NCBI RefSeq assembly: GCF_003334765.1
Contig: NZ_QOWT01000001.1
Length of the DNA stretch: 64,000 bases
Source of the DNA: Escherichia coli
Lineage (GTDB): Bacteria > Pseudomonadota > Gammaproteobacteria > Enterobacterales > Enterobacteriaceae
Strand: one strand, 5' to 3'
The notes below the pieces were generated by a model. The model made no database searches, had not been told where the DNA came from, and saw nothing but the letters and a program-made list of their open reading frames with translations. A program made the position numbers and the translations under genes. Positions 16,914-17,126 of the stretch are shown here, piece after piece (positions within the stretch are counted from its first letter, which is position 1; every line of letters begins with the position of its first letter).

Positions 16914-16957
16914 GTGATTTGTATCACATAAAGATTGATTTTTGTGATGGTTGTCAT
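16914..16957. promoter_or_regulatory. Two CRP-like sites upstream of azuC
   Basis: TGTGATTTGTATCACA (16914-16929) and TGTGATGGTTGTCATA (16942-16957) match TGTGA-N6-TCACA. Confidence 0.45.
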
Positions 16958-17010
16958 ATTATAAGCGCAAAGACAATAACACCTGTATAACAAATGGTCG
17001 GAGTGCCGCG

Positions 17011-17097
17011 ATGAAACTGCGCAAAATCCTGAAAAGTATGTTCAATAACTATTGCAAGACGTTCAAAGACGTACCGCCAGGCAATATGTTCCGATAA
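17011..17097 (+). CDS. azuC: Small protein AzuC (28 aa)
   Basis: ATG..TAA encodes MKLRKILKSMFNNYCKTFKDVPPGNMFR; followed by terminator; below the ORF-track size cutoff. Confidence 0.8.
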   Translation: MKLRKILKSMFNNYCKTFKDVPPGNMFR

Positions 17098-17101
17098 CAA
17101 A

Positions 17102-17126
17102 AAACCTGCTCCGGCAGGTTTTTTTG
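17102..17126 (+). terminator. Rho-independent terminator of azuC
   Basis: AAACCTGCTCCGGCAGGTTTTTTTG. Confidence 0.75.

Follow-up and report, generated by a model that had tools for sequence, protein, structure and literature searches.

A K-12-type azuCR locus, with a 28-residue protein gene and two CRP-type operators, in a non-MG1655 Escherichia coli

Introduction

When is a reading frame of only 28 codons a gene, and if it is one, which gene and under what control? The question is raised by a short segment of an Escherichia coli genome, part of the 64,000-nucleotide stretch analysed here (contig NZ_QOWT01000001.1; referred to as the window), in which such a frame is preceded by two CRP-like palindromes and followed at once by a hairpin. 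A preliminary description, made from the sequence alone, had read these elements as the small-protein gene azuC with its upstream sites and terminator, and had named conservation of the frame in related species, along with ribosome occupancy, as tests to which this reading should be put. The analysis presented below identifies the locus as azuCR of the E. coli K-12 type standing in a non-MG1655 background. We put the probability of the complete explanation, a CRP-repressed dual-function RNA that both encodes AzuC and acts as the regulator AzuR, at about 97%; none of the findings speaks against it. The gene is one already known, neither a new member nor a variant: azuC/AzuCR was reportedly described between 2002 and 2010 and its mechanism characterised in 2022.

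Results

Identity and genomic setting of the locus

A 301-nt query taken around the ORF found matches of at least 95% identity in 5,419 of 5,426 complete E. coli genomes. Among the matches listed, the RefSeq feature lying beneath every one was "azuC: stress response protein AzuC". The predicted protein covers positions 1-26 of the 26-position NCBIfam equivalog NF033642 (stress_AzuC), scoring 75.9 bits (cutoff 30; E = 1.3e-21). Together with the RefSeq annotation of the window itself, this match bears out the gene name that had been proposed. The gene order is tyrP, yecH, ftnA, yecR (minus strand), azuC and yecJ (both plus strand), ftnB, araF.

In the RefSeq annotation of K-12 MG1655 the azuC CDS (b4663; 1987873-1987959) lies within the ncRNA gene azuR (b4434; 1987843-1988001), the latter also known as AzuCR, IsrB or IS092. 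An ungapped comparison found positions 16908-17169, which take in the promoter and everything annotated as azuR or azuC, to be base-identical to MG1655; over a 451-nt stretch the two sequences differ only by three SNPs, at 16907, 17170 and 17242. Promoter, 159-nt transcript and CDS are thus those of K-12, and the neighbours yecR, yecJ and ftnB are likewise the same. The wider surroundings depart from MG1655 in lacking the IS1 element upstream of flhD and any match to the K-12 FliX sRNA sequence (fliX), the latter probably on account of a differing fliC allele.

Table 1. Positions of the elements of the azuCR locus and of other annotated small RNAs, in window coordinates.
Feature	Position	Strand	Description
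Upstream CRP-type operator	16913-16928		TGTGATTTGTATCACA; perfect palindrome (0 mismatches); centre -48.5 from TSS
-35 hexamer	16935-16940	+	TTGATT; 16-bp spacer to -10; TTG in 59/59
Downstream CRP-type operator	16943-16958		TGTGATGGTTGTCATA; 1 mismatch; centre -18.5
-10 hexamer	16957-16962	+	TATTAT; conserved in 55-59/59; ends 6 nt before TSS A16969
AzuCR (azuR/IsrB/IS092) transcript	16969-17127	+	159 nt per RefSeq; 100% identity to K-12 azuR
FnrS pairing site	16980-16986	+	CACCUGU; 5' UTR, 25-31 nt upstream of ATG
Shine-Dalgarno	17000-17003	+	GGAG; 7 nt before ATG; invariant in 58-59/59
azuC CDS	17011-17097	+	28 aa + TAA; ATG start; 87 nt; amphipathic cationic peptide, net charge +6; RefSeq-annotated
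Candidate cadA/galE pairing segment	17057-17082	+	AzuCR nt 89-114, inside CDS; computed best local duplex only
Intrinsic terminator	17099-17125	+	A6, stem CCUGC, loop UCCG, stem GCAGG, U7
SdsN	7913-8049	-	K-12 sRNA annotation
3'ETS-leuZ	13156-13222	+	K-12 sRNA annotation
AsflhD	25799-26018	-	K-12 sRNA annotation
MotR	26892-26986	+	K-12 sRNA annotation
MicL	45447-45753	+	K-12 sRNA annotation

The transcript and its terminator

The published transcription start site, K-12 position 1988001 (PMC8915982), corresponds to A16969. The same paper gives the RNA a length of 164 nt, with which it would end at 17132, as against 17127 in RefSeq; its text also numbers the CDS as nt 40-126, whereas its own start site combined with the RefSeq CDS gives nt 43-129.

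Immediately downstream of the frame, where a strong terminator had been noted, a hairpin of the form AAAAAACCUGC-UCCG-GCAGGUUUUUUU is predicted to fold with -16 kcal/mol (z = -5.1), a value reached by none of 200 dinucleotide shuffles. Its CCUGC/GCAGG stem (17105-17118) is invariant across the genera compared below, apart from a U-A to U.G change in three sequences, while the loop varies. A scan for consensus promoters and terminators picked out the -35/-10 pair with its 16-bp spacer and did not list this terminator, probably because the T tail is taken up into the A/U-extended stem and none is left beyond it.

No Rfam family covers AzuCR. The closest scores, those of STnc370 (33.4 bits against 54) and rsmX (23.4 against 56), come from the terminator hairpin only. 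The sub-threshold match to STnc370, a Salmonella sRNA, falls at 17093-17157 on the minus strand, opposite the azuCR terminator; the STnc370 alignment rests on the A6-stem-T7 hairpin, which has the form of a terminator on either strand. Outside the terminator, the body of AzuCR is no more structured than shuffled sequence (z = -0.01), and RNAalifold analysis across genera gave no convincing conserved helix beyond the terminator itself. The same analysis drew a small hairpin inside the CDS (17068-17090), in the segment to which the duplex scan described below assigns cadA and galE pairing. Within it, the pair 17073/17085 joins two third-codon positions (AU in 26 sequences, CG in 11, GC in 8, UG in 2, non-pairs in 12). 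This single covarying pair could be a phylogenetic coincidence.

The azuC frame and its conservation

The frame translates as MKLRKILKSMFNNYCKTFKDVPPGNMFR, exactly as first read, and ends in TAA. Over residues 1-20 the helical hydrophobic moment is 0.53-0.60, a value equalled by 35-71 of 5000 shuffles (p ~0.007-0.014). Judged in this way, by sequence periodicity only, the analysis supports an amphipathic N-terminal helix, in keeping with the character given to the peptide in the preliminary description. The remark that the ORF track had missed the gene is explained by size: the mechanically called ORF that encloses the azuC frame begins at a TTG at 16951 and has 48 codons, under the default cutoff of 60.

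Conservation was assessed in 80 species loci, fetched by way of the neighbouring gene yecJ so that the choice did not presuppose azuC. Of the 80, 59 have an AzuC-like frame some 65-120 bp ahead of yecJ; they represent at least 11 enterobacterial genera: Escherichia, Citrobacter (amalonaticus/sedlakii group), Enterobacter, Lelliottia, Leclercia, Kosakonia, Silvania, Huaxiibacter, Pseudescherichia, Pseudenterobacter and Pseudocitrobacter. It was not found at the yecJ locus of Salmonella enterica subsp. arizonae and diarizonae, Citrobacter koseri, the C. freundii group, Buttiauxella and one Escherichia lineage, an absence that applies to this locus and is not proof for the genome. In the last of these (Escherichia sp. 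MOD1-EC7003; L003:2560-2972) yecR and azuC have been removed by a natural deletion, and just ahead of yecJ the ftnA upstream region runs straight into a decayed azuCR terminator (CTGTTCCGGCTGGTTTTTT).

Among the 54 unique coding sequences, 10, 11 and 26 of 27 columns vary at the first, second and third codon positions, respectively. Pooled pN/pS comes to 0.16 in the azuC frame; the two shifted frames give 3.5 and 0.99. The CDS changes length in two ways only: by an insertion of 6 nt, which keeps the frame, and by a one-codon shift of the stop. The insertion, in Pseudocitrobacter (L080, L081), falls at codons 3-4 and yields a protein of 29 aa beginning MKQRMRKILK...; the shift results from a CGA to TGA change at codon 28, by which most AzuC forms outside Escherichia have 27 aa. 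Because of the third-position excess, the low pN/pS and the in-frame indels, the frame is judged to evolve as coding sequence and, by this substitution pattern, to have been kept by purifying selection in at least 11 genera. The test set beforehand thus came out in favour of the gene.

The same data bear on two other ways of reading the segment. The transcript could be a non-coding sRNA and nothing else (IsrB/IS092), with the 28-codon frame open by accident; this would suit the ncRNA annotation that lies over the frame in K-12, as well as the history of the RNA, which entered the literature as a candidate sRNA and acts by base pairing (PMC8915982). An accidental frame, however, is at odds with the confinement of change to third positions, with the pN/pS contrast between the three frames and with indels that always preserve the frame, and the Shine-Dalgarno sequence and start codon are conserved too. 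Ribosome profiling (citing Weaver 2019) and the detection of SPA-tagged AzuC protein have moreover been reported (PMC8915982). The sRNA-only reading is effectively refuted by the codon-position analysis, and we attach next to no credence to it. Just as little attaches to the notion that the real gene is one of two 48-codon frames that are both open in the window, the TTG-initiated extension of azuC (16951-17097) or an antisense ORF (16954-17100, minus strand). The extension contains non-triplet indels and is little conserved; its start also lies upstream of A16969, so that the AzuCR transcript could not give rise to it. In 53 of the 54 unique sequences the antisense frame is open, but it would stay open because it is in codon register with azuC and the sense strand avoids TTA, CTA and TCA; the sites that vary coincide with its first codon positions, which would not be a coding pattern.

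Two CRP-type operators in the azuCR promoter

Both of the CRP-like sites that had been noticed upstream of azuC are present, although their extent needs correction: they lie 53-98 nt from the ATG rather than 55-95, and the palindrome begins at 16913, one base before the start coordinate given earlier (16914). In the upstream operator the half-site bases GTGA (16914-16917) and TC.C (16924-16927) are kept in 59 of 59 loci while the six spacer positions vary freely. The downstream operator fills the spacer between the -35 and -10 hexamers and overlaps the -10 by 2 bp; its half-sites TGTGA and TCATA are conserved in 56-59 of 59 (TCATA in all 59), again around a variable spacer. With up to one mismatch allowed, the count of TGTGA-N6-TCACA in the window (3, against 2.4 expected) is not unusual. 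Exact palindromes, however, number only 0.063 on average in a shuffled window, and two sites no more than 60 bp apart arose in 5 of 1000 shuffles; the observed pair exceeds chance. The interval 16860-17015 holds no third candidate with two or fewer mismatches, and the two sites must therefore be the "predicted CRP binding sites" of the literature (PMC8915982).

The only other perfect TGTGA-N6-TCACA palindrome of the window (TGTGATCTGCATCACA) lies at 25720-25735, 277 nt upstream of the flhD ATG (CDS 25997-26347). Its centre is 71.5 nt upstream of 25799, the end of the AsflhD annotation. The position fits the class I site through which CRP is known to activate flhDC.

CRP activates transcription from positions centred at -61.5 and beyond (class I) or at -41.5 (class II), and the majority of CRP sites in E. 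coli are activating. On that general ground the azuCR sites, too, might be supposed to activate. Their centres, however, fall on neither class I nor class II positions and the site at -18.5 lies within the core promoter; from these positions we infer that the two sites would act in repression, by promoter occlusion. Published data agree: both AzuC-SPA and AzuCR reach high levels in glucose, and a crp mutant contains more AzuC-SPA (PMC8915982, citing Hemm 2010). Activation of this promoter by CRP is accordingly very hard to credit.

A less easily dismissed question is which protein reads the upstream element. FNR, NarP and PhoP have been described as additional repressors of the isrB promoter, with motif coordinates, and mutation of the FNR and PhoP motifs relieved repression (Ekdahl et al. 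2025; PMC12266141). When these coordinates are transferred to the window, the FNR motif (K-12 1988039-1988058) maps to 16912-16931 (1988042-1988058 being 16912-16928), the PhoP motif to 16907-16924 and the NarP motif to 16894-16910. The reported FNR motif and the perfect CRP palindrome are thus one and the same stretch of DNA, which the PhoP motif overlaps. The authors place their new sites upstream of the CRP sites, despite the coincidence of the FNR-motif coordinates with the first of these (PMC12266141). Upstream of 16912, a region that includes the NarP motif, conservation is seen only within Escherichia.

It could accordingly be argued that 16913-16928 is primarily an operator for FNR (or PhoP) and not for CRP, or, in a milder version, a composite of CRP and FNR sites. 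Besides the mutational results, the T and A at positions 6 and 11 of the palindrome (GTGAT....ATCAC) are shared with FNR sites. On the other side, the segment has two mismatches to the FNR consensus TTGAT-N4-ATCAA against none to that of CRP. The two bases that discriminate between CRP and FNR sites (GTGA/TCAC as opposed to TTGA/TCAA), G16914 and C16927, are invariant in 59 of 59 loci. The promoter, moreover, offers no other candidate that could stand for one of the two predicted CRP sites, and deletion of crp derepresses AzuC (PMC8915982, citing Hemm 2010). An operator belonging chiefly to FNR or PhoP is therefore improbable. The retention of the CRP-specific G and C across genera favours CRP as the reader for which the element is selected. 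We regard a composite operator at this place, serving CRP as well as FNR and overlapped by that of PhoP, as a tentative proposal, with the odds somewhat against it.

Base pairing with FnrS, cadA and galE

The first seven nucleotides of K-12 FnrS (GCAGGUG) are complementary to a heptamer in the azuCR 5' UTR (Table 1), at a position that agrees with published compensatory mutations (PMC8915982). FnrS has been found to pair 25-31 nt upstream of the ORF and to repress AzuC synthesis (PMC8915982). In most genera the consensus at this place is CACCTGC, by which a G-C pair would replace the G.U pair at the end of the duplex. In an Enterobacter asburiae-like clade (L021, L034-L036, L038, L041, L044, L045) the heptamer CACCTGC is replaced by A-AGTTGTA, and in all its members but L038 azuC starts with GTG, not ATG. 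These changes suggest that in this clade control by FnrS is altered or lost and initiation is weaker.

AzuR has been reported to repress cadA and galE by way of a pairing segment within the ORF, as demonstrated with compensatory mutations, and translation and pairing of AzuCR interfere with each other (PMC8915982). A windowed duplex scan gave best values of -23.5 kcal/mol for cadA (matched by 3 of 25 shuffles) and -20.0 kcal/mol for galE (13 of 25), neither better than the shuffled controls. The targeting of the two mRNAs is thus a matter of the published experiments alone, which the scan neither supports nor contradicts. Whole-length RNAduplex predictions of AzuCR with FnrS, galE and cadA were discarded, the global duplexes being unrealistically long.

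Other small genes of the window

The preliminary description had found no other convincing small ORF with both an RBS and a terminator in the window. Set against the annotation, this does not hold: two small genes annotated in K-12 are present at 100% identity, yecU on the minus strand (9139-9315; 58 aa) and yecV on the plus strand (42313-42357; 14 aa, MSIFRIHLDGNKKA). Five further small RNAs annotated in K-12 occur in the window with 97-100% identity (Table 1).

Discussion

Since the sequence is identical to that of K-12, the mechanism published for that strain should apply here, and the elements described above can be combined into a picture of how the locus would work. A sigma-70 promoter (TTGATT, 16 bp, TATTAT) would fire at A16969 and give an RNA of about 159-164 nt ending at the terminator hairpin. 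Translation from the ATG at 17011 would produce the 28-residue AzuC, a membrane-associated protein reported to bind the aerobic glycerol-3-phosphate dehydrogenase GlpD, with which it co-purifies, and to raise its dehydrogenase activity (PMC8915982). As AzuR, the same RNA would pair through its coding-region segment with the cadA and galE mRNAs and repress them, as described in the literature, and the two activities would compete on each molecule. When glucose is absent, cAMP-CRP would occupy the operators at -48.5 and -18.5 and turn transcription off; the downstream one, lodged between the -35 and -10 hexamers, should keep RNA polymerase out. In anaerobic conditions FnrS would pair by its 5' end with CACCUGU and block AzuC translation; FNR, NarP and PhoP are likewise reported to repress the promoter. 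To the preliminary reading this adds that the transcript is a dual-function sRNA and more than an mRNA, and that the CRP sites would serve repression.

In its double role AzuCR resembles SgrS/SgrT and Spot 42/SpfP of E. coli, VcdRP of Vibrio cholerae and RNAIII of S. aureus, dual-function sRNAs that, like AzuCR, base-pair with mRNAs and encode a very small protein in carbon metabolism (PMC8915982, PMC8916003, PMC8672173). There is no sequence relationship between AzuCR and these RNAs. It differs from them in that its pairing region lies inside the ORF, so that its two activities compete, and in being itself a target of FnrS (PMC8915982). Spot 42, like AzuCR, is repressed by CRP. In spf (Spot 42) and cyaR (named in PMC8915982), as in azuCR, a TGTGA-N6-TCACA element lies over the region contacted by RNA polymerase and expression is high in glucose. 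Unlike spf and cyaR, azuCR has two such sites, 30 bp apart and both conserved across genera, and the upstream one overlaps the reported FNR and PhoP motifs (PMC12266141).

As a discovery the locus carries little weight, azuC/AzuCR having long been known. Its value lies rather in calibration: a real gene of 28 codons, together with its regulatory sites, could be recognised from raw sequence at the first stage of reading, while an ORF cutoff of 60 aa hides three real genes of this window, azuC, yecU and yecV. For the regulation of azuCR itself, the analysis adds that the FNR motif of the literature coincides with the palindrome at -48.5. Should this palindrome be a composite operator, carbon and oxygen signals would be integrated at a single DNA element; if it is not, the published "FNR-site" phenotype would be in part that of a CRP site.
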